A stretch of 12,005 nt of DNA from an archaeon. Its GTDB lineage: Archaea > EX4484-52 > B79-G9. Under the pieces are notes generated by a model. It saw nothing but the letters and a program-made list of their open reading frames with translations. It made no database searches and was not told where the DNA came from. Positions 1 through 12,005 of the stretch are shown in pieces (within the stretch, counting starts at the first letter, position 1; each line of letters starts with the position of its first letter). The stretch covers positions 1 to 12,005 of the forward strand of contig JBDRKP010000081.1 in NCBI GenBank assembly GCA_043813875.1, read 5' to 3'. Position numbers and translations under genes: made by a program.

Positions 1-81
1 AGAATATAACAGCATTATAAAGACACCAAAAAAATACAACACAAACAAAACACAATATAACCATAAAAAGGCACATGACAC

Positions 82-130
82 ATATCTAAATATATAAATA
101 CGCCGATATCTCGATATCTCAATATATAAA
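82..130 (+). promoter_or_regulatory. Tandem TATA-containing direct repeats upstream of ORF 186
   Basis: ATATCTAAATATATAAA (82-98) and ATATCTCAATATATAAA (114-130) match at 16/17 positions. Each contains TATATAAA (91-98, 123-130). CGATATCT occurs twice at 104-119. Confidence 0.45.
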
Positions 131-185
131 CAAACTCAAAGTATATATAGTACAAGACACATAAATTCTAACAGAGTGATATGAA

Positions 186-620
186 ATGATTGTAGGAATA
201 AATCTCGATTTTATAATGGCAAAAAAATACAACCAGCCTAAAGGCAACATAAGGATAGACAACAAGACCAAAATAACAGACGTAAAACAAATAGACGTAC
301 CATATTTCAAAGAAAAGGCGACAAAAATAGAATTCATGTTCCAGACAACATACAATGCAGAAAAAGAACCCATAGGCGAAATACAAATCGGCGGAAATGT
401 CATATACCGCGGCCAAAAAGAAAAGTTACACGAAACATGGCTGAATGAAAAAAAATTACCTGAAGACATCGCGCTCCACATCATGAACAACATCCTCAGA
501 AAATCAATAACAAGAGTGATAGACCTATCAGAGCAGCTTATGCTCCCACCACCGATAAACCTGCCACTGATCCACCCGAAGAAAGAAAAGAAAGAACAAA
601 ACATAGAGTACATAGGATAA
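186..620 (+). CDS. Conserved hypothetical protein, possibly SecB-like fold
   Basis: 144-aa ORF with plus-strand-typical A/C-ending codons. Beta-strand-like N-terminal two thirds (MIVGINLDFIMAKK...IEFMFQTTY...IQIGGNVIY), then a helix and an LPPPINLP tail. Resembles a family I associate with DPANN archaea; the SecB-like fold is inference. Confidence 0.7.
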   Translation: MIVGINLDFIMAKKYNQPKGNIRIDNKTKITDVKQIDVPYFKEKATKIEFMFQTTYNAEKEPIGEIQIGGNVIYRGQKEKLHETWLNEKKLPEDIALHIMNNILRKSITRVIDLSEQLMLPPPINLPLIHPKKEKKEQNIEYIG

Positions 621-657
621 TCATACAGGATGACAGATAATACCGGCAGAATATATA

Positions 658-671
658 GAAAACTATATAAA
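658..671 (+). promoter_or_regulatory. Putative BRE/TATA promoter for the wHTH gene at 728
   Basis: GAAAAC followed by TATATAAA (664-671) in the intergenic gap. Confidence 0.45.
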
Positions 672-727
672 CATCAAAAAACAACCATCATACTATAGAA
701 AACAAAATTTAAAATTAAAGACAGAGG

Positions 728-1039
728 ATGAGGCATATGAACCGCAAAAAATCAATATTAGACGATATCTTTCTTCATGACAAGCCGGTAAAGATACTTA
801 TCGGCCTCAAAGCAGACAACAGCAGAAGCTATGCATCCACGCTGGCAAAAACAGCTGACTGCACATATTCGCACACAGTAAAAATATTGGAATACTTCAA
901 AAAAATAGGCCTTGTAGCGTTCGAAAAAAAAGGCAGGGTAAAATACATAAAACTGACAAAACTAGGCGAAGACATAGCAAGTGATTTGGAAAACATATGT
1001 CGCAAATTCTCAAAAGTAGATTTAGCAGAAAAAAAATAA
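728..1039 (+). CDS. Winged helix-turn-helix DNA-binding protein (MarR/ArsR-like fold)
   Basis: YASTLAKTADCTYSHTVKILEYFKKIGLV HTH followed by the wing FEKKGRVKYIKLTKLG. Alternative start ATG at 737. Confidence 0.85.
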   Translation: MRHMNRKKSILDDIFLHDKPVKILIGLKADNSRSYASTLAKTADCTYSHTVKILEYFKKIGLVAFEKKGRVKYIKLTKLGEDIASDLENICRKFSKVDLAEKK

Positions 1040-1055
1040 AATAATCGCACTGAAA

Positions 1056-1469
1056 TCAATCAGAAGACCCAGCAACATCTTTAGGCGGAACATATTGCTC
1101 TTTCTTTGCCATGAAAGCATTTACCGAACCTACAATCGCTGAAAAGAATCTCTCACATCGATTAGAAAGCTTATAATAATCCCTGTCAATAACCTCAATA
1201 AGCCCAATCCCAAGCAACTTATTCACCATAGTATAATACGTAGTTCTCGAAATATTATGCGCTTCACAATACTTGTCCCAGTTTGACCTCTCAAAACGCC
1301 CCTGAGATCCTAAAGCCCTCAACTCCTTCAAAAAAGCCAGGGCATGATCCGGAAGATCAAGATTCTTCGGCCCATGATATAAAAGCTGCAGCAACAGTTC
1401 AAAATCAGCAGCCACTAATGGCTTTACAAGAATAGTTGTCTGATAGCGGGCAGATATCTTGCGTCCCAT
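1056..1469 (-). CDS. Hypothetical protein with winged helix-turn-helix motif
   Basis: WDKYCEAHNISRTTYYTMVNKLLGIGLIEVIDRDYYKLS is an HTH-plus-wing pattern. Start moved to the ATG at 1469 (MGRKISAR), which lies ~25 nt downstream of a minus-strand TTTATA (1492-1497). Confidence 0.75.
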   Translation of the reverse strand: MGRKISARYQTTILVKPLVAADFELLLQLLYHGPKNLDLPDHALAFLKELRALGSQGRFERSNWDKYCEAHNISRTTYYTMVNKLLGIGLIEVIDRDYYKLSNRCERFFSAIVGSVNAFMAKKEQYVPPKDVAGSSD

Positions 1470-1491
1470 ATAATCAATAAAGACATACAAC

Positions 1492-1497
1492 TATAAA
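1492..1497 (-). promoter_or_regulatory. Putative TATA box for the leaderless minus-strand wHTH gene
   Basis: TTTATA on the minus strand, 23-28 nt upstream of ATG 1469. Confidence 0.45.
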
Positions 1498-1499
1498 TA

Positions 1500-3118
1500 C
1501 CTGCGCACTGATAACAAAATCGATACGCTTCAACCCAATAAAATGAAAATAAAACACAAATCAAAAAAAATGATACCGATGATTAAAAATGACAAAATAA
1601 AGAAAAAAACAGAATATTAAGAAAAATAAAGATAAAAAAACATATAAAATAGATAAATATGAACAAAAAAGACATATTTCAATAAAAGAAGACATTATAA
1701 GTGCCAAATAAAATACAAAAACCATAAAAAAATGAATAAATAAATCAATATACAGACGACATAAATGGGAAAATAATACCGAAAAAATAAAAAAGAACAA
1801 AAAAATAAATAAGCACAACTTCCCAAATACACCCATATATCGGAAAATATTCCCAGAAAAAAACAGGGAAAAACTCAAAATATGGCCTCAAACCATATTC
1901 AAAAAACGATATGCTGCGAACAATCAAATCAACACTTCAACGGAGTGTGTTTTTTCTACAATAAAAACACCATTCAGATATATTCCAGAATAAAATAACC
2001 CATTCTATTATTTTCAGGCATATTTGGCATAGAATCAAGAGTATACATTGACAGAAATGCATATTCACATACTATCTAAAACAAAGTTGTTGACAGGATC
2101 GCCCAGGAAAACAAGATATTCCAGTAGATATATGAATAGACAAAATCCAGGAAAACCCCCAATCTCAAGCAAAGTATATACCCCCATAGAAGATAATAGG
2201 GCAAAAACCTCATTGAAAAAAACATAAAAACATAGAGAGATTTTACCAGGAGCTTAAAATAATGCCAGCAAAAAGAAAACAAAACAAAATATATATGACC
2301 CAAAAAACAGCACCAAACCGCACCGGATCGGTCTGCAACCCAAAGACACACCCCTCTGATTCCAGTAAAAGAACCAAAAAGCGAATTTGAAATTTTGTGA
2401 GAGTTAAGATATTTACACACCATAAATCAGGCCATTTTTCTTCCAAAAAGAAGCCAAAAAATTGCTTCTTTCAGCCAAAATCCAATATTTTGCCCTAAAT
2501 CAGCCAAGTAATCTATATACTCCAGACAAGAAAACCCATAAAAAATAGATTAGATAATCAGCACAGGACACAGAATCAGCAGCAAAATAAATATCATGAG
2601 ACTGTATCGCACAGAAATCTGCAAGACAGGTACACACAATGAAGGCAGATATGATATAACCAGCATGATAAATGGGAAAAATTACCTGAAAAACAGGATA
2701 ATTGGGAAGAAACGACCAATAAAATAAATGGGAAACGTAGACCAGAAATAAATAGAATACTTAAATATACATATAATACTAAATACTACAGATTGTATCT
2801 TGACATAACAAAATAATATAATAAGAATATAAAACAATAAAAACACATAAATACAATAATATAGTAATACCTCAAGATAAAACCATGCCAACATATATCC
2901 AAACATAAAAATGTGAGACCACATAAAAATATATATTCGAAAATATATTACACAAACCAACAATTGAAAAGTGATTCCGTCAAAATAAAAACGACAACAA
3001 GTGAACACAAAAACAAAAACATACAAATAACACCCAAAATTTATCCGAAAAAAATGAGATAGATAGAAGTTTAAACTTCAAACATATAAAGGAGTTATAA
3101 TAAAGTCATATAATATAG
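1500..3118. other. Long AT-rich non-coding region with motif clusters and short inverted repeats
   Basis: No credible ORF. A-rich flanks at ~1540-1810 and ~2745-3050. Repeated ATAAATGGGAAA, CCAG-A-run and AATCAG motifs. Inverted repeats at 1947-1970 and 2447-2471. Confidence 0.7.
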
Positions 3119-3148
3119 TTGACCAAGACAAAAATAAAACATAAAAAA

Positions 3149-3688
3149 GTGAATTCATTGAACGAAATAATTCTATGGATAATCCAGGCGCTCTGGTTCA
3201 TCCTGCCCGCATACATCGCAAATCCGACACCAGTAATAGTCGGCGGCAAGACCCCGCTCGACTTCAACAGGAAATTCTTCGACAACAACCCCATATTCGG
3301 CAAAGGAAAGACATGGCGCGGCACGTTTTTCGGCATCCTCGCAGGAACCGCAGCAGCATACATCCAGATACAAATCCAGTCAAGCTACGACCTTGGCGCA
3401 TTCAGCCTCACAGAAATGACCCTGCCCCTCGGCTTCCTCCTGTCATCAGGCGCAATAATCGGCGACATAACAAAAAGCTTCCTGAAAAGGCGCATCAACA
3501 TAAAACGAGGCAGCGAACTGCCGCTCTTCGACCAGCTGGACTTCATAATAGGCGCCCTCATCTTCGCATCATTCGTCACAGAAATAACCCTAAGAACAAT
3601 AATCATCCTGGTAATCATCACCCCCGTAATCCACCGCCTCGCAAATATCCTCGCATACAGGCTGAAACTCAAAAATGTTCCATGGTAA
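3149..3688 (+). CDS. carS: CDP-2,3-bis-(O-geranylgeranyl)-sn-glycerol synthase (CDP-archaeol synthase)
   Basis: Family motifs LPAYIANPTPV..GG..PLD, FGKGKTWRG, GDITKSFLKRRINIKRG, PLFDQLDF and a C-terminal KLKNVPW. Start uncertain: GTG 3149, or TTG 3119/3158. Confidence 0.95.
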   Translation: MNSLNEIILWIIQALWFILPAYIANPTPVIVGGKTPLDFNRKFFDNNPIFGKGKTWRGTFFGILAGTAAAYIQIQIQSSYDLGAFSLTEMTLPLGFLLSSGAIIGDITKSFLKRRINIKRGSELPLFDQLDFIIGALIFASFVTEITLRTIIILVIITPVIHRLANILAYRLKLKNVPW

Positions 3689-3785
3689 TGTGAGAGTTAA
3701 CCAGGAAAACACCTCAAATTATACAGATCTCAAGGCATCCGATGCCCGGCCCATAAATCACCAAGCTAGACAACCAAGTGACAAC

Positions 3786-4343
3786 ATGACCAACATACTC
3801 AACACCATCCAAAAGAGAATGCAGGCACTGATAAAAAAAATACCCCCGGAACTATCACTCAGCCTATCCATTCTGTTCTCGATGCTGTCAGGATACCTTT
3901 ACCTGATCGACAACATGATCGCCGCAGCACTAACGCTGTCCCTGAGCAGCTACTTCGCCACCCATGCAAAAGACAATACAGCAGGACAACAAAAACCAAT
4001 CAGACCGCAATCAAAACAGGTAACAGACCGCATCAGGGACGCATTCATATTCACAGGCATCACCTTAAACCCAAATATACCGCTAAACATAGGCCTCATC
4101 ACCATGGCAGCAGTGATATTCGTTCCGCATCTGATATCCCTGAGGCAAACCCTCTCAAAACAAAAGATTGACCCAAAAATATCACGCGCCGACATAGACA
4201 TGATACTGATAACATCAACCATGATCGCAACATTCATCAGGCCCGCACTCTGCTACTCGCTCCTCCTCATAACAGCGCTATGCATCGGGTCATTCATAGA
4301 GATGCAATTCAGGACCTACAAAGACAGGTCAAAAAGAAAATAG
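3786..4343 (+). CDS. Degenerate CDP-alcohol phosphatidyltransferase-family membrane protein (catalytic motif largely lost)
   Basis: 185 aa from ATG 3786, with ~6 hydrophobic segments. DRIRDA and ISRAD.. segments sit where archaeal CDP-alcohol phosphotransferases have DRxxD and xxRxER. The DxxDGxxAR segment reads FATHAKDNTA. Confidence 0.6.
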   Translation: MTNILNTIQKRMQALIKKIPPELSLSLSILFSMLSGYLYLIDNMIAAALTLSLSSYFATHAKDNTAGQQKPIRPQSKQVTDRIRDAFIFTGITLNPNIPLNIGLITMAAVIFVPHLISLRQTLSKQKIDPKISRADIDMILITSTMIATFIRPALCYSLLLITALCIGSFIEMQFRTYKDRSKRK

Positions 4344-5818: not shown

Positions 5819-5855
5819 TCAAAAAACACGTCATACAAACATCAAAAAACACGTC
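5819..5855. repeat. 14-bp perfect direct repeat TCAAAAAACACGTC
   Basis: Copies at 5819-5832 and 5842-5855. The second copy is the last 14 nt of the PHP gene, including its stop codon. Both read as T6 tracts on the minus strand. Confidence 0.85.
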
Positions 5856-6492
5856 TTAACCGCTGCCAATACCAGCTCATGATAGACAAAAGAGGCGTCA
5901 GCCGGCAAACAATCTCAGTCCTGCCCTCGCGTATCTCAGAAAGGACCGAATCAGCATCCTTCCTGCAATCAACAACAGTATAAGAATTACCAATCTCACC
6001 CACAAGATGCGCATCACTAGACGCAGTCATAGGAATGCCTGCCCTCTTCGCCGCATCATAACCCATGCGATTGCTGAAATACGTCCTCGAATTGAACACC
6101 TCGACAGCATCAAAACCCGCAGTCCTTACCTCACCCCTCACACCGTTCGGATGGAATATGACCGAATATGGATGCGCTGCAACCGCAATGCCGCCAAGCT
6201 TATGAATCCTCCGCACAGTCTCGGCAGCAGGAAGGCCGCGCGGGACAACAGAAGTGATACCAAGCCCCAAAATATCACCATGCCTGGACTTCACCTCAAC
6301 CCCGGGAATCACTAAAAAATCCTCCTCCTTACCAGCCTTCAACGCCAAAGGAAGCGCATCAACACAATTATGATCAGTGATAGCGACCCCGGAAAGCCCG
6401 ACCGACTTGGCCCTCTGTATAATCTCAAGAATCTCCATGAACCCGTCAGGAGAATGCCTCGTATGCATATGCAGATCAAGCTTCATCTTCAT
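5842..6492 (-). CDS. PHP-domain metal-dependent phosphoesterase
   Basis: PHP metal-binding motifs DLHMHT..SPDG, AITDHN, GVEV, AAHP and SSDAH. Confidence 0.93.
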   Translation of the reverse strand: MKMKLDLHMHTRHSPDGFMEILEIIQRAKSVGLSGVAITDHNCVDALPLALKAGKEEDFLVIPGVEVKSRHGDILGLGITSVVPRGLPAAETVRRIHKLGGIAVAAHPYSVIFHPNGVRGEVRTAGFDAVEVFNSRTYFSNRMGYDAAKRAGIPMTASSDAHLVGEIGNSYTVVDCRKDADSVLSEIREGRTEIVCRLTPLLSIMSWYWQRLRRVF

Positions 6493-6552: not shown

Positions 6553-7152
6553 ATGGTCGACAAAAATGCCATCCCGTTCTTCAACATGGCAAACAGCACA
6601 TCCATAATCCGCATCCTGCTCCTCCCGCTATACACAACACTCATCATCTACGGCGACACGACCCAAAAAAAAGCAGCGATAATACTATGCATAGTCATCT
6701 TCCTCATGGACTACCTTGACGGCTGGATCGCAAAAAAGATGGACATAAAAACAAAAATCGGAAGCCACTTAGACGTCATTGCAGACAGGATCACAGAACT
6801 GTTCCTATGGCTGACATTCCTCTCATTCGGACTCGTCCCATTATGGGCGCCATTGATACTCCTCTCAAGAAGCATGATCACCGACCTCATACGTTCACAG
6901 GCCATCACAAAACAGATCGGCACCTACGACATGATCAAAAGCGATACAGGCAGATTCATAGTAAACTCCCGCACAATGAGAGGACTATACGGCGGCCTGA
7001 AGATGCTATTATTCACATTGCTGACAGCAAGCTTCACAACCCACACACAAGACATCCTCGCAATAACCCCCGCACTGATAGCGATAGTAGTCCTGATTGG
7101 CATAATAAGAGGCCTCCCGGTCATCCACGAAGGCATAAAATACCTCAAATAA
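6553..7152 (+). CDS. CDP-alcohol phosphatidyltransferase, PgsA-like
   Basis: Complete signature DYLDGWIAKK...IGSHLDVIADR. N-terminal ANSTSIIRILLLP resembles the PgsA N..T..R helix. Alternative start ATG 6586. Substrate not determinable from sequence. Confidence 0.9.
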   Translation: MVDKNAIPFFNMANSTSIIRILLLPLYTTLIIYGDTTQKKAAIILCIVIFLMDYLDGWIAKKMDIKTKIGSHLDVIADRITELFLWLTFLSFGLVPLWAPLILLSRSMITDLIRSQAITKQIGTYDMIKSDTGRFIVNSRTMRGLYGGLKMLLFTLLTASFTTHTQDILAITPALIAIVVLIGIIRGLPVIHEGIKYLK

Positions 7153-7270
7153 TGTGAGAACTGACAGATTCAAAACACAGGCATCCATCATCCACCAAAC
7201 CATTTAAAAAATCCTCACAACCATACAAGCATATATCCACCCATACCCAAAAACCATCCAAGTGACAGAC

Positions 7271-7609
7271 ATGAAACAAGCAATAATAATCCGCTCCGAC
7301 CTGAAGATGGGCAAAGGAAAAGCAGCAGCTCAAGTAGCCCACGCATCACTCGATGCCTACAAGAACTCACCCTTCATCAGCAAAAAACAGTGGGAACTGA
7401 CCGGCCAGAAAAAAGTGGTCTTAAAAACAGAAGACCTGAAAAGCCTCACAGAGCTCTTCATGCACGCAAAAAGAGAAAAAATACCCTTATCCCTCATAAA
7501 AGACGCAGGCAGGACACAAGTCCCCGCAGGCACCATAACCTGTCTCGCCCTCGGCCCCGCAGAAGACCAGAAAATAGACAGGATCACAAAAGACCTCAAA
7601 CTATACTAA
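7271..7609 (+). CDS. pth2: Peptidyl-tRNA hydrolase, archaeal/eukaryotic Pth2 type
   Basis: MKQAIIIRSDLKMGKGKAAAQVAHAS, GQKKVVLK, DAGRTQVPAGTITCLALGP and IDRITKDLKLY. Start at ATG 7271. Confidence 0.97.
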   Translation: MKQAIIIRSDLKMGKGKAAAQVAHASLDAYKNSPFISKKQWELTGQKKVVLKTEDLKSLTELFMHAKREKIPLSLIKDAGRTQVPAGTITCLALGPAEDQKIDRITKDLKLY

Positions 7610-7631
7610 ACACGCTAAACAGGCGTCTAAA

Positions 7632-8897
7632 ATGATAATCCACGTAACAGACATCATCTTCTGGTTCATATACATAATATCGCTTTACACAACCATATTC
7701 ATAATAATAACGCTCATCGAGCACAAAAAGACTGCGCCCAAAAAACAACAGATATCCCCCCTGCCCCGCGTATCCGTCATCGTCCCTGCCCACAACGAAG
7801 AACAGACAATAAGAGGCACAATAACATCCCTCCTGTCACTCGACTATCCCAGAAAACTGCTGGACATAATAATCGTAAACGACGGCTCGACAGACAACAC
7901 AAGAAAGATAATAGAACAATTCAAAAACAGCCAGATAACAATCATCAACCAGGAAAACCAGGGCAAAGGCGCCGCCTTGAACAACGGCCTGAAAACCGCA
8001 AAAGGCGAACTGGTCGCATGCCTTGACGCAGACTCCTTCGTAGAAAAAGACACATTAAGGCTGATGCTCCCCCACTTCATCGACCCCGAAATATCAGCAG
8101 TATGCCCCATGATGAAAGTAAAGAACCCGAAAAACCTCATCGAAAAATCCCAGTGGCTCGAATATCTCCTATACGCATTCATAAAAATGATAATGGCGCA
8201 GATCCACTGCATAAACGTCACGCCAGGCCCGTTCACCATCTACAGGAAAAAAGCCATCACAGACATAGGCGGATTCGACGAAAAATCAATAGTAGAAGAC
8301 CAGGAAATCGCCTACCGCCTCCAGAAAGCCCACCGCAGGATCGCGCAATCAACACAAGGCAACGTCTACACAGTAAGCCCGAAAACACTAAAAGAGTTAT
8401 ACATCCAGCGCAAGCGCTGGTACAAAGGCACCCTCATCACCTTCTACCAGTACCGCCACATGCTCTTCAACAAAAGATACGGCGACTTCGGCATGTTCCA
8501 GCTGCCGGCACTCGCAGCAGGCATGCTCACACTCCCCCTCGTAGTCCTCCTCTTCCTGAACTACACAATAATCCCATTTACAAAAGACCTCTACCACCTA
8601 TACCTCATAGGCTTCGACATAATGCCATACCTCACCCTCCAAAGATTCAACCTCGGACTATTCCTCACAACAAGATGGCTCTCGACAGACTTCGCCAAAT
8701 TATTTATAGTTATCAGCCTATTCATAATTAGCGTGGCGCTAATGATAAAAGCACACAAAGAGACATACGAAAAGCTAGGCGTAAAAGACATCATCCCTGT
8801 CATATTCTTCTTCATGATATACTACATCATCCTAAGCTTCATGTGGGTCGGCTCCATGATAGAACTCGCCCGCGGCAAAAAAAGCAAATGGTCTTGA
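7632..8897 (+). CDS. Membrane-bound processive GT2 glycosyltransferase (cellulose synthase/PgaC-IcaA-like)
   Basis: N-terminal TM, VSVIVPAHNE, NDGSTD, GKGAALN, DAD, VED, QRKRW (QxxRW) and C-terminal TM helices. Confidence 0.92.
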   Translation: MIIHVTDIIFWFIYIISLYTTIFIIITLIEHKKTAPKKQQISPLPRVSVIVPAHNEEQTIRGTITSLLSLDYPRKLLDIIIVNDGSTDNTRKIIEQFKNSQITIINQENQGKGAALNNGLKTAKGELVACLDADSFVEKDTLRLMLPHFIDPEISAVCPMMKVKNPKNLIEKSQWLEYLLYAFIKMIMAQIHCINVTPGPFTIYRKKAITDIGGFDEKSIVEDQEIAYRLQKAHRRIAQSTQGNVYTVSPKTLKELYIQRKRWYKGTLITFYQYRHMLFNKRYGDFGMFQLPALAAGMLTLPLVVLLFLNYTIIPFTKDLYHLYLIGFDIMPYLTLQRFNLGLFLTTRWLSTDFAKLFIVISLFIISVALMIKAHKETYEKLGVKDIIPVIFFFMIYYIILSFMWVGSMIELARGKKSKWS

Positions 8898-8898
8898 C

Positions 8899-9603
8899 AT
8901 GAGAACACTGAACAAAAACAAATACATCATTGTAGGAATCCTGACAGTCATAATATTCAGCCTCGGCCTGCTCTTAGGAATAGTAGTAAACGAATACAAG
9001 ATAAAATACATGGAACAGGTCGCAAAAGAGCAGGAAGTCGAATTCTCAAGCCTCCAGTTCCAATACCTGTATCTGGACACGCTAAAAGACTACGATCGAT
9101 GCGCAGTCGTCTCAAAGACACTTGAAAACAACTTAAAGACACTCTCCCCCATCCTCGAAGAGCTTGAAAGATACGAACAGGATGGCGACCTAAAAGATCC
9201 CATATACATAACCCTCAAACGGAAATACATCCTCGCCAACTTAAGATACTGGCTGCTCGCACAGGCAAGCAAACAATCATGCCAGAACGAAATCGTGACA
9301 ATATTCTACTTCTACTCCCCGGAATGCAAAAACTGCCCCGACCAGGGCTTCACCCTCACCCACCTGAAACAGATATTCGACGACCGCCTCCTGATATACC
9401 CCATAGACTCCACGTTCGAAAAAGAACCCATGATATCGATACTGAACGCCAAATACAACATCACGCAATACCCCACACTGGTGATAGAAAAAGAGATTCA
9501 TCCGGGCTTCATGTCAAAAGACGAACTGCTAAAAGAGATCTGTAGCCTGTACAATACCCCCCAGCCGGAATGCTCTGAAGTAAGAGACACAGAATCCCCG
9601 TGA
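8899..9603 (+). CDS. Membrane-anchored protein with helical stalk and C-terminal thioredoxin-like CxxC domain
   Basis: N-terminal TM (YIIVGILTVIIFSLGLLLGIVV), FYFYSPECKNCPDQG, YPTLVI (cis-Pro-loop-like) and four extra Cys. Starts 1 nt after the GT2 stop. Confidence 0.8.
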   Translation: MRTLNKNKYIIVGILTVIIFSLGLLLGIVVNEYKIKYMEQVAKEQEVEFSSLQFQYLYLDTLKDYDRCAVVSKTLENNLKTLSPILEELERYEQDGDLKDPIYITLKRKYILANLRYWLLAQASKQSCQNEIVTIFYFYSPECKNCPDQGFTLTHLKQIFDDRLLIYPIDSTFEKEPMISILNAKYNITQYPTLVIEKEIHPGFMSKDELLKEICSLYNTPQPECSEVRDTESP

Positions 9604-9609
9604 TAGACA

Positions 9610-12005
9610 ATGGAAAAATCCAGACAATACATCCTATACATCCTTATTTTTTCACTCGCAATCCGCCTGGCTCTCATATCACTGCCGGTCGAGATATGGT
9701 GGGACGAAGCGACATACATAGGCATCGGAAAATACCTCCTATCTGGCGGAACATCAGGATTCATAGAATACCTGCGCCCGCTCCTGCTCCCGGCAATATT
9801 AGGCATCGCATGGAAAATCAACATAGACCCGATAACCACAGGAAGACTATTTGCAATACTCTCAAGCATCGCAACAATATACATGACATACCTCATCACA
9901 AAAAAGATCGATAACGAAAAATCAGGCATAATAGCAGCCGCAATACTAAGCGTCACCTACTACTTCATCAACTTCTCAACAAAAATCATAACAGACATAC
10001 CATCCATCTTATTCATCCTCATAGCAACCAACGAGCTCCTGAACAAGAATCTCACCAAAAAGAACATAATCACCGCAGGAATCTCGAGCGCCCTCGCAAT
10101 CCTTATGAGATACACATCAATGACACTCATCATTCCCATAATACTAGGCATAACAATAATCAGCCTCAAAAGAAAAGAAAAAGAAAAATACATACAGGCA
10201 ATATCCGATCTGGCGACATTCCTCGCCTCATTCGGGATGACACTGACCCCTTACTTCATATACATGTACATGAAATACAACGACCCATTTTTCTCAATGT
10301 CACAGGCAATGGATGCCGTAAACATCACAAAAATATACTACGGCACATCCATCATAAACATAATACAAGAATTAATCACGCAAAACCCACTGCTAATATT
10401 CTCAATACTCGGAATATACCTTTATGCAAAAAACATAGACAACAAAAAAGCCATAATCCTTGCAGAACTGGCAATGACAGCCATTTCACTCTACGTGATA
10501 CCTATAAAGATACTGCGCTACACCCTCATGATACTCCCTTTCCTATGCATCACAGCCGGCACAGGCATCCACGAGCTCAGCAAGAGAACACAGGCATCAA
10601 AATCAACCGAAAGGTTAAAAAACATCAACATAACCGCCATATTCATAGCAACCCTGGTACTGTTGACAATGATATTAGCATACCAAAACATCGAAACAGA
10701 CACCGTCTCCAAAACATCAAAAGAAACCATCTACAACTATCCTGCAACACACAACATCACAGATCCCATCATAACAAACAACCCGGCAATAGCAGCATAT
10801 ATAGACAACCAGATAATACCCCTCGGATGGCCCGTCTACGCAAAAAAAGCATACCAGGAAAACAAAAAAGACGGCGCCCTCATCCTCATAAGCACATGCG
10901 ATCTTCTCTGCACAGAATCAGACACAGAATGCCAAAACAACAGAAAAGAATTCATAAAACTGATAGAACAGGAAAACAAAAAACTAAAAGAGGCCACAAT
11001 AGACAACTGCACATACACAATATACCAAAGCGGTTTCTATGAAAAAAAAGAGAAACAGGATAAACCAAAAATAAACCCGCTCTGGTGGGACGAAGCAGTA
11101 TACATGGGCCTCGCAGAAAACCTATACATGAACAGGACATACTCATTCAACACAAACGACCAGGAAAAATTCAGGCCCCCCCTCTACCCCGCAATACTTG
11201 CAGCATTATTCCTCATAACAGGTCCAAGCGAAACATCACCCATCCTGCTGAACATAATCATCGCCCTCCTGACAGCGCTCGCCACATACATCCTCGCAAA
11301 AGAGCTCTTCCACGACAAAAAGACATCAATCGCATCAGCAATACTCATCGTCACATCACAGCAATACATATTCTGGTCATCAAAGATCCTGACAGAACCG
11401 CTCGCGATCCTCATGGCAACCCTATCCCTCCTCATATTCACCAGCATAACCAAAAACAAAAAAACAAACCTCTACCCCATTCTCGGATTCATCCTCGCCC
11501 TGTCATTCCTCACAAGATACCCGCTCGGCCTCCTGCCGATATACTTCACAATATATCTCATGGCAACAGACAGGGCCCACATAAAAAAGAACATAAAAAT
11601 GATAGCATACGCTGCAATCATATTCACAGTGACTCTGCTCCCATGGATGTACAACAGCTACACGACATATAATCACCCCTTAGGATCAGCCCTATTCAAC
11701 ATAGAGCAGGTAAATGATCTCTACAAGCCGGACCCGAAAACATATTACATCTCAACATTCTACACATACCTGCCATTCCTCGGTCTCCTCTTCACAGCAG
11801 GAATACTCCTGGCGTTACTCAACAGAAAACCAGCCGCAAAAAAAGATCAATACTTCCTCATAGGCTGGTTCATGATCGTACTCCTCCTCCTCTCTCTCGG
11901 CATCGGCCAGAAATTCTACAGATACCTGCTGATAGCGCTCCCCTCCATCGCGATAATAGGCGCAAGAACACTGTCAACAATATCAGAAAAAATAACAAAA
12001 AAACA
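9610..12005 (+). CDS. Tandem double GT-C glycosyltransferase (ArnT/PMT_2, GT39/GT83-like); 3' end outside the window
   Basis: Manually translated from ATG 9610 (MEKSRQYILYILIFSLAIRLAL...), with no stop through 12003 (>=798 codons). Two WWDEA.Y motifs at 9697 and 11083, each followed by a multi-TM body with RP, TD/TE, RY and K..RY...LP motifs. Presumably absent from the ORF track because it has no stop in the window. Confidence 0.9.
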   Translation, partial: MEKSRQYILYILIFSLAIRLALISLPVEIWWDEATYIGIGKYLLSGGTSGFIEYLRPLLLPAILGIAWKINIDPITTGRLFAILSSIATIYMTYLITKKIDNEKSGIIAAAILSVTYYFINFSTKIITDIPSILFILIATNELLNKNLTKKNIITAGISSALAILMRYTSMTLIIPIILGITIISLKRKEKEKYIQAISDLATFLASFGMTLTPYFIYMYMKYNDPFFSMSQAMDAVNITKIYYGTSIINIIQELITQNPLLIFSILGIYLYAKNIDNKKAIILAELAMTAISLYVIPIKILRYTLMILPFLCITAGTGIHELSKRTQASKSTERLKNINITAIFIATLVLLTMILAYQNIETDTVSKTSKETIYNYPATHNITDPIITNNPAIAAYIDNQIIPLGWPVYAKKAYQENKKDGALILISTCDLLCTESDTECQNNRKEFIKLIEQENKKLKEATIDNCTYTIYQSGFYEKKEKQDKPKINPLWWDEAVYMGLAENLYMNRTYSFNTNDQEKFRPPLYPAILAALFLITGPSETSPILLNIIIALLTALATYILAKELFHDKKTSIASAILIVTSQQYIFWSSKILTEPLAILMATLSLLIFTSITKNKKTNLYPILGFILALSFLTRYPLGLLPIYFTIYLMATDRAHIKKNIKMIAYAAIIFTVTLLPWMYNSYTTYNHPLGSALFNIEQVNDLYKPDPKTYYISTFYTYLPFLGLLFTAGILLALLNRKPAAKKDQYFLIGWFMIVLLLLSLGIGQKFYRYLLIALPSIAIIGARTLSTISEKITKK

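Follow-up and report, generated by a model that had tools for sequence, protein, structure and literature searches.

Glycosyltransferases of the C superfamily (GT-C), such as the oligosaccharyltransferases (OST), the protein O-mannosyltransferases (PMT), ArnT and the Emb, ALG and PIG transferases, to our knowledge always carry one catalytic module per chain. Several GT-C enzymes work as dimers of separate chains. In this study, we describe an archaeal gene in which two GT-C modules are joined in one open reading frame (ORF), directly behind a cassette that encodes a family 2 glycosyltransferase (GT2) and a thioredoxin-like (Trx-like) protein. The stretch of DNA analyzed, called the window below, is the entire 12,005-nucleotide contig JBDRKP010000081.1 (C81) of genome G000 (1.64 Mb in 90 contigs, estimated to be 91.5% complete), and the contig stops at position 12005, inside the fused gene. 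Judging from sequence and models, we consider it probable that the ORF is a natural single-chain tandem of two polyprenyl-phosphate-sugar-dependent PMT_2-type (ArnT/PMT-like) GT-Cs, which would be bifunctional and would have originated by one deletion.

ArnT, the undecaprenyl-phosphate-L-Ara4N:lipid A transferase (PDB 5f15/5ezm), is the best structural match of the second module (Z 29.9) and ties for the best match of the first (Z 27.7) when models of the full-length homolog P0002 are compared. Both proteins belong to Pfam PMT_2, carry an acidic residue in their first outer loop and end in a soluble domain, which is periplasmic in ArnT, and a polyprenyl-phosphate-sugar donor, known for ArnT, would be expected for the fused protein as well. 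However, ArnT has one module per chain, always with the first transmembrane helix (TM1), and has 9-12% sequence identity to the P0002 models. The membrane part of Pmt1-Pmt2 and Pmt4 (PDB 6p25, 9i5k, 9e61) also matches both modules, at Z 26.6-28.6. PMTs are obligate dimers of two GT-C protomers, according to the accessible part of one report (PMC12705809). In the PMTs, every protomer is a chain of its own that has TM1 and a luminal MIR domain, whereas the two units are joined in the fused protein and no MIR domain was detected in the window protein by Pfam at E<=1. In GT-C enzymes including POMT, an acidic motif soon after TM1 in the first luminal loop is essential for activity, and POMT-type enzymes have 11 helices and bind dolichyl-phosphate mannose (Dol-P-Man) by a Lys of the third external loop (EL3) and an Arg of EL5 (accessible part of PMC6801728). 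In GtrABC-like three-component systems, an outer-face GT-C decorates a surface glycan from a lipid-linked sugar (accessible parts of PMC11127046 and PMC8035078). The logic of an outer-face GT-C with a lipid-linked sugar would be the same at our locus, but the GT2 of the cassette resembles a processive PgaC/NodC-type synthase and not GtrB, no GtrA-like flippase was seen in the cassette, and two GT-Cs lie in one chain.

The fused gene

The frame at 9610-12003 (plus strand) starts with ATG, is stop-free for 798 codons and is ended only by the end of the contig. It was absent from the ORF list of the window because, with the contig ending at 12005, it is listed only if open-ended frames are allowed. 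Its ATG lies 7 bases past the stop of the upstream gene. The gene and its parts are as follows (aa, amino acid residues).

9610..12003 (+): double GT-C gene (fused), open for 798 codons and truncated at its 3' end, where the contig stops
9631..9693 (+): TM1 of module 1 (aa 8-28), from hydropathy; helix 2-23 in the P0002 models
9697..9708 (+): WWDE of module 1 (aa 30-33), which supplies the two acidic residues of the first outer loop; all five fused proteins have this D and E
9775..10212 (+): Pfam PMT_2 match of module 1 (aa 56-201), from profile search
10696..11034 (+): C-terminal soluble domain of module 1 (aa ~363-475, boundaries approximate), placed outside the membrane; four Cys invariant in five fused proteins
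11035..11082 (+): K/E/P-rich polar linker (aa 476-491), no hydrophobic segment, low model confidence
11083..11094 (+): WWDE of module 2 (aa 492-495), invariant in 16 of 16 rows of the module-2-rich alignment A3
11173..11646 (+): Pfam PMT_2 match of module 2 (aa 522-679), from profile search

A preliminary description, made from the letters of the window, had reported an open frame of at least 798 codons with two collinear motif sets and the two WWDE motifs 462 codons apart. All of this is confirmed by the translation, in which the WWDE motifs stand at residues 30 and 492 and all six of the quoted motif pairs are present. The four Cys and the N-x-T sequons that it had placed in the external domain of module 1 were likewise found in the stretch between the modules (Cys 430, 434, 441 and 467; sequons at 382 and 466). 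The linker ahead of the second WWDE is YEKKEKQDKPKINPL.

The expected two non-overlapping PMT_2 (PF13231) matches were obtained, both above the gathering cut-off of 26.1 bits (aa 56-201, E 6.6e-15, 56.1 bits; aa 522-679, E 1.2e-18, 68.3 bits), alongside weaker PMT (38.8 bits) and Alg9-like Pfam matches. When the two halves were compared by BLASTP, they were 31% identical over 314 columns (E 4e-17), which is far beyond chance. None of the named NCBIfam GT-C families, the ArnT type included, reached its cut-off, the best being LA3751_2_3_fam with 54 bits (cut-off 200), while archaeo_STT3 had 19 (cut-off 450). The five fused proteins show no variation at the D and E of the two WWDE motifs, at K125/K585 or at R297/R763 (P0002 numbering), and in both modules the Lys lies in an STK/SSK loop and the Arg in a K-x-x-RY loop. 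By analogy of position, the invariant DE, Lys and Arg of both modules would correspond to the DE motif, the EL3 Lys and the EL5 Arg of POMT, and both modules would presumably use a polyprenyl-phosphate-linked sugar donor.

TM1 of module 1 would be the only N-in-to-out helix directly ahead of a DE loop. There was no hydrophobic segment at aa 363-528 in any frame, so module 2 lacks a TM1 of its own. A hidden TM1 or a separate start for module 2 was ruled out by the other two frames at the junction (10500-11200), which are Arg/His-rich and full of stops and contain no hydrophobic helix. Hydropathy and frame check therefore agree with the earlier statement that a TM1 precedes the WWDE of module 1 and a polar linker without TM1 precedes that of module 2.

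The homologs extend ~125 residues past the window protein, with one extra helix and a soluble domain of ~100 residues. Their C-termini (last ~140 residues) were not found by tblastn in any of the 90 contigs (best E 0.30); the 3' end of the fused gene is simply unassembled in this genome.

Conservation and distribution

The single chain with two GT-C modules, as first proposed in the preliminary description, is supported by the two PMT_2 matches, by the same ORF in four other assemblies and by gap-free contigs across the junction. Four full-length homologs of 923-943 aa, with 58-65% identity to the window protein at 97-100% query coverage, were retrieved from 5.8 billion proteins by a word-indexed search. 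The genome collection contained four fused loci, three with a complete fused ORF and one cut by a contig end, and the three complete loci have an identical order of PTH2, GT2 (421 aa), Trx-like gene (231-242 aa) and fused gene. In the species-representative collection, three of the four relatives with a fused locus belong to metagenome-assembled genomes (MAGs) labelled 'Candidatus Nanohalarchaeota archaeon', which makes the source organism of the window an archaeon of DPANN type. A check of continuity at 11030-11090, suggested earlier, was possible with contigs from public runs: X1 (10970-11203), X3 (11018-11378) and X4 (10996-11156) span the junction with substitutions only and no gaps. They come from three other runs of two studies and are short, with depths of 2-3.5. 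The X2 contig (981 letters, depth 102) was rejected as unrelated, as it meets the stretch only via two pieces of ~20-28 letters. A look-up of RNA datasets containing the stretch listed none. Among the five fused proteins, mean pairwise identity is 66% in the membrane part of module 1, 76% in that of module 2 and 58% in the linker, and the end of the linker, I-N-x-L-WWDE, is kept in all five.

The surveyed genomes were samples of incomplete MAGs, and the negatives given here mean that the fused form was not found among those searched. Frames with two PMT_2 matches occurred in 5 of 42 genomes of the phylum, all of them in genus g1 (G000, G002, G005, G007 and, with a frame that runs off its contig, G001), and this genus is represented by eight genomes. 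G003 has module 2 alone, and G004 and G006 gave weak matches to other GT-C open frames (766 aa in G004). The fused form was not found in a second archaeal phylum (17 genomes, PF13231 at E<=1e-12), in a third (61 genomes, P0002 at E<=1e-15), where there were only four single-module matches, or in a set of 19 genomes of the same domain. A search of the ESM Atlas (clusters of at least 50 members) gave 30 matches, and those listed were all single-module proteins of 465-534 aa. The search for other proteins with the same double architecture, as called for in the preliminary description, thus found it only in genus g1 among the genomes searched. No description of a two-module GT-C chain was found in the searchable literature, whose coverage leaves out subscription journals, and the arrangement seems not to have been described before.

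Origin from two GT-C families

An exhaustive HMMER pass over 1.84 billion cluster representatives gave 6347 matches at E<=0.001, and the best 150 were examined. Among these 150, P0005 was the sole representative covering both modules. Two short sequences, P0017 (359 aa, 98% identical) and P0019 (266 aa, 63% identical), reach over the start of module 1 only, and the rest of the 150 cover either module 1 only (~1-475, including the Cys domain) or module 2 only (~485-798). The direct relatives are stand-alone DPANN GT-Cs: the module-1 type P0018 and P0009, of which P0018 is 48% identical to module 1, and the module-2 type P0007, P0008 and P0010, of which P0007 is 58-60% identical to module 2. Each of these relatives has one module of 450-530 aa with its own N-terminal helix, whereas the fused chain has two modules, and in other genera they occupy the same slot behind the GT2 and Trx-like genes. 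The stand-alone module-2 proteins P0006, P0007, P0008, P0010 and P0011 start with their own hydrophobic helix.

A tree was built from 38 rows, namely the 10 halves of the five fused proteins, 10 stand-alone module-2 proteins and 18 stand-alone module-1-type proteins (16 chosen from more than 130 HMMER matches, mostly the higher-scoring ones, plus P0012 and P0013). The module-1 and module-2 families separate at 100/100 support, the fused module 1 is sister to the stand-alone P0018 (100/100) and the fused module 2 is sister to the stand-alone P0007/P0008 (100/100). Because each module groups with its own stand-alone relatives, the gene is, on the evidence of this tree, a fusion of two distinct GT-C families and not a duplication. 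The earlier impression that the modules are too diverged for a recent duplication was therefore borne out.

P0006 from G003 (locus L006, 1104-2702) is a 532-aa single module 2 that is nested in the fused clade (100/98), and its N-terminal helix resembles TM1 of module 1 in the fused protein. It looks like a secondary loss of module 1 in which the in-to-out helix was kept. Such a history would be a natural deletion and fits the model proposed below. P0006 also has a ~40-residue insertion ahead of the last helices, which is present in the G002 copy.

PMT_2-type enzymes of these lineages readily gain terminal catalytic domains, as in the GT2+GT-C protein of G020 and the GT-C+polysaccharide deacetylase proteins (P0056, P0117 and others). 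These fusions differ from ours in that they add a soluble enzyme (a cytoplasmic GT2 or a deacetylase) and not a second membrane GT-C, and in that TM1 is retained. The G020 protein is encoded by a 1354-aa ORF (L009 1667-5731, minus strand) with an N-terminal GT2 and a PMT_2 GT-C, possibly a lipid-sugar synthase and a transferase in one chain. A Pfam scan of nine long module-1-type relatives detected no second GT-C in any of them; all nine (P0056, P0073, P0099, P0117, P0118, P0137, P0140, P0153 and P0160; 711-843 aa) have a C-terminal DUF2334 or polysaccharide deacetylase domain. Together with the PgaC-like neighbor, these GT-C plus deacetylase relatives hint at a pathway for a polymer of N-acetylglucosamine (GlcNAc).

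Fold and membrane topology

P0002 was folded twice, with a module-1-rich (A2) and a module-2-rich (A3) alignment, because no single MAFFT alignment placed both stand-alone types correctly. One alignment for both modules was given up, as MAFFT put the stand-alone module-2 proteins on module 1 (A2) and the stand-alone module-1 protein on module 2 (A3). The module-1-rich model has a mean predicted local distance difference test score (pLDDT) of 83.7 and a predicted template modeling score (pTM) of 0.64, with module 1 mostly above 90 and module 2 at ~55-92. The module-2-rich model has a mean pLDDT of 73.7 and a pTM of 0.53, with module 2 at ~70-96. The helix lists of the two models agree, and the pLDDT of the linker (476-484) is below 50. 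All 27 Foldseek matches of the P0002 model at E<=0.001 are GT-C enzymes. A sequence search of solved structures with P0002 gave no match at E<=0.01, so that the link to the solved GT-Cs is by fold only. The models were superposed on solved chains by VIA-align, with the following results (rmsd, root-mean-square deviation).

ArnT 5f15: module 1 model 1-472 on chain 26-571, Z 27.7, rmsd 4.3, 434 aligned
ArnT 5f15: module 2 model 485-923 on chain 53-570, Z 29.9, rmsd 3.6, 415 aligned
Pmt4 9i5k_A: module 1 model 1-357, chain from 53; module 2 model 484-821, chain from 81
Pmt2 6p25_B: module 1 model 1-358, chain from 61; module 2 model 484-821, chain from 89
AglB 5gmy_A: module 1 model 1-469, chain from 10; module 2 model 485-923, chain from 45
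STT3 8age_A: module 1 model 1-469, chain from 14; module 2 model 485-923, chain from 45
PglB 5ogl_A: module 1 model 1-469, chain from 13; module 2 model 485-921, chain from 54
ALG12 9s6t_A: module 1 model 6-470, chain from 10; module 2 model 485-923, chain from 33

The module 1 model gave Z 27-29 against STT3, Pmt4 and ArnT, and the C-terminal soluble domain of each module superposes on the periplasmic domain of ArnT and corresponds to the periplasmic or luminal domain of the solved enzymes. Module 1 aligns with the solved chains from their TM1 onward. In every solved chain, the alignment of module 2 starts 23-41 residues later than that of module 1, and module 2 therefore has the appearance of a GT-C minus TM1. 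The models support the conclusion that it is a complete GT-C less one N-terminal helix.

Counted from the models, the protein would have 11 membrane helices in module 1 and 10 in module 2, 21 in total. In the window protein, 38 of 137 residues in the loops assigned to the inner side are K or R, compared to 15 of 217 in those assigned to the outer side, and this positive-inside alternation is unbroken across both modules. We infer that both DE loops and both soluble domains lie outside the membrane. The claim in the preliminary description that module 2 has no TM1 and is delivered to the outside by the domain of module 1 is consistent with the offset in the superpositions, with the 21-helix positive-inside path and with the helix that the stand-alone relatives have of their own. 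A complex prediction of module 1 against module 2 scored 0.00 (mark 0.32) with controls not run, and bears neither way on a contact between them.

The upstream cassette

Three genes precede the fused gene on the same strand.

7262..7609 (+): PTH2 peptidyl-tRNA hydrolase, syntenic left neighbor of the cassette, from profile match and synteny
7632..8897 (+): PgaC/IcaA/NodC-like membrane GT2 with a QRKRW motif, TIGR03937 E 8.2e-54
8899..9603 (+): membrane-anchored Trx-like protein with CxxC (CKNC), directly upstream of the fused gene; weak Pfam Thioredoxin match (E 0.0036), below cut-off

The QRKRW motif of the GT2 is presumably the Q-x-x-R-W signature of processive membrane synthases. The Trx-like protein consists of an N-terminal helix and a thioredoxin-like domain, and its CxxC is present in all 12 orthologs. 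The cassette of PTH2, PgaC/NodC-like GT2, CxxC Trx-like protein and PMT_2 GT-C is conserved over several genera of the order (7262-9603 of the window; L012-L021). In all 11 stand-alone loci from other genera (L011-L021), the Trx-like gene precedes the GT-C gene, and the PgaC-like GT2 was seen in nine of them, L011 and L018 being cut by a contig end inside the Trx-like gene. The cassette GT-C is of the module-1 type in six loci (genera g3 and g10) and of the module-2 type in five (g2 and g5). The three g3 loci that extend far enough have a second module-1-like gene after the first GT-C. L016 contains an additional GT-C-like stretch on the opposite strand and a 3-kb gap between the Trx-like and GT-C genes. 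Two loci of genus g1 are without the cassette: L006, where the 1.1 kb ahead of P0006 contains neither the GT2 nor the Trx-like gene, and L007, which is a second, stop-containing module-1 copy in G002. A specific role of the Trx-like protein for the four-Cys domain of module 1 was considered and dropped, because the protein is equally conserved in the genera with module 2 only.

From this comparison of loci, each of the two module types is taken to serve as an alternative partner of a single conserved cassette, and both are combined in genus g1. The combination supports a bifunctional enzyme that would modify a surface glycan. In other genera, a single module type stands behind the same GT2/Trx-like pair, and therefore the two activities would be separable and coupling would not be required. 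This separate use argues against an obligatory two-step relay and speaks at least as much for parallel or alternative activities as for the sequential transfers that the preliminary description had proposed.

Proposed mechanism and alternatives

We suggest that module 1 (aa 1-475) is a complete enzyme with TM1, the DE loop, ~11 membrane helices and an outer, Cys-containing C-terminal domain, and that the short polar linker runs straight into the DE loop of module 2, which would comprise the other ~10 helices and a second outer C-terminal domain, without TM1. Because module 1 would end outside the membrane, module 2 would start there, and both catalytic loops and both soluble domains would be exterior. 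The fused gene probably arose once, in the ancestor of one DPANN genus, from a module-1-type and a module-2-type gene. We infer that a single deletion took out the stop codon, the spacer and TM1 of module 2, because a retained TM1 would invert module 2. Since both modules keep the expected catalytic and donor-binding residues, a bifunctional enzyme is likely, which would place two glycosyl modifications on an extracellular acceptor; the likeliest acceptor would be the polymer or glycoconjugate made by the upstream PgaC-like GT2. A more specific version, which we regard as tentative, is that the chain is a covalent GT-C pseudo-heterodimer, in which the last in-to-out helix and the outer domain of module 1 replace TM1 of module 2 topogenically and perhaps structurally, and the two outward sites cooperate on the polymer of the PgaC-like synthase.

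Several points weigh against the bifunctional tandem. G003, a member of genus g1, lost module 1, so the fusion is dispensable there, and other genera have module 1 or module 2 alone behind the GT2/Trx-like pair. The GT2 matches TIGR03937 (PgaC/IcaA) end to end with 183 bits, below the 422-bit equivalog cut-off, and none of the cassette genes was identified as encoding a Dol-P-sugar synthase or a flippase. As to the structure, P0002 (full length, 64-66% identical to the window protein) was modeled in place of the truncated window protein, each of its two models is confident for one module only, and the sidedness of the loops and the count of 11 and 10 helices were deduced from the lists of helices, from the positive-inside rule and from homology with enzymes of solved structure.

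Some of these points would also suit a real but functionally neutral fusion, in which a deletion joined two neighboring GT-C genes, in which the halves work independently or are cleaved at the linker after insertion, and in which the gain is limited to co-expression and a free ride of module 2 to the outer face. In the g3 loci L012-L014, two adjacent but separate GT-C genes stand behind the same cassette, other genera manage with one module type, and one member of the genus reverted to a single module 2. The linker, moreover, is polar, has a pLDDT below 50 at 476-484 and is less conserved (58%) than module 2. However, the fused form has been kept among proteins that have diverged to 58-65% identity with the window protein, with both modules conserved, and the I-N-x-L-WWDE at the end of the linker is the same in five of five. 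Cleavage would leave module 2 without a helix at its N-terminus, and of the 10 stand-alone module-2 proteins that were examined, none lacks such a helix. We consider a neutral fusion rather unlikely on balance. It is much less probable that one module is a catalytically dead scaffold or acceptor-binding subunit next to a single active site. In favor of this, conservation is somewhat lower in module 1 (66%) than in module 2 (76%), and module 2 is without TM1, a helix of the conserved core in the solved GT-Cs to which it aligns. Nevertheless, all five fused proteins have the acidic pair and the Lys and Arg of EL3 and EL5 type in both modules, both modules score above the PMT_2 gathering cut-off, and each type is the only GT-C of the cassette in other genera and is hence presumably active alone.

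The source genome is fragmented into 90 contigs, the contig ends inside the gene, and the public contigs that cover the junction are short and of a depth of only 2-3.5, which might raise the suspicion that an assembly or sequencing artifact merged two genes. This is extremely improbable, because the continuous frame also occurs in four other assemblies and in five of the eight genomes of the genus, and three contig pieces from other runs cross 11030-11090 without an indel. A separate module 2 would, in addition, have no start codon, ribosome-entry spacer or TM1 in any frame.

Significance

As a compact system whose two modules are genetically fixed, the fused tandem lends itself to structural studies of the arrangement of GT-C protomers. 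It also provides an experiment of nature on whether the conserved GT-C core can do without TM1 or accept a substitute for it. As a Rosetta-stone link, it connects two DPANN GT-C families with the cassette of PgaC-like GT2 and thioredoxin-like protein, and it bears on how reduced, host-dependent archaea build their surface glycans. If the pseudo-heterodimer version were true, this would be the first single-polypeptide two-site GT-C machine and a natural proof that TM1 is dispensable for the GT-C core. The novelty is limited, since fold, motifs and chemistry all belong to known types and a single genus was found to have the fusion.

Other features of the window and genome

A lipid-synthesis neighborhood lies further upstream (3119-3688, 3675-4343 and 6553-7152). 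It includes a CDP-archaeol synthase (CarS-like, E 3.8e-54) with a TTG start at 3119, for which the ATG frame 3175-3693 of the ORF list is the wrong frame, as well as a weak archaetidylinositol-phosphate-synthase-like ORF and a CDP-alcohol phosphatidyltransferase. Positions 1-3100 have a G+C content of 0.30-0.375, compared to 0.41-0.485 elsewhere, and are A-rich on the plus strand. This part has few convincing ORFs, and small winged-helix candidates were noted at 728-1039 (plus strand) and 1056-1490 (minus strand). Searches of the whole window for tRNAs and Rfam families gave no match. The whole window shows a strong and uniform strand asymmetry (GC skew -0.11 to -0.37, AT skew +0.18 to +0.43), and the genes with a clear family match are all on the plus strand except for a PHP-domain gene (5842-6492, minus strand). 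The same genome has a second glycosylation cluster (L008, G000:C13:6000-19000), which encodes a PMT_2 protein of 548 aa, an AglB/STT3 oligosaccharyltransferase of 788 aa and a third protein, of 914 aa, whose PMT_2 match is below threshold.

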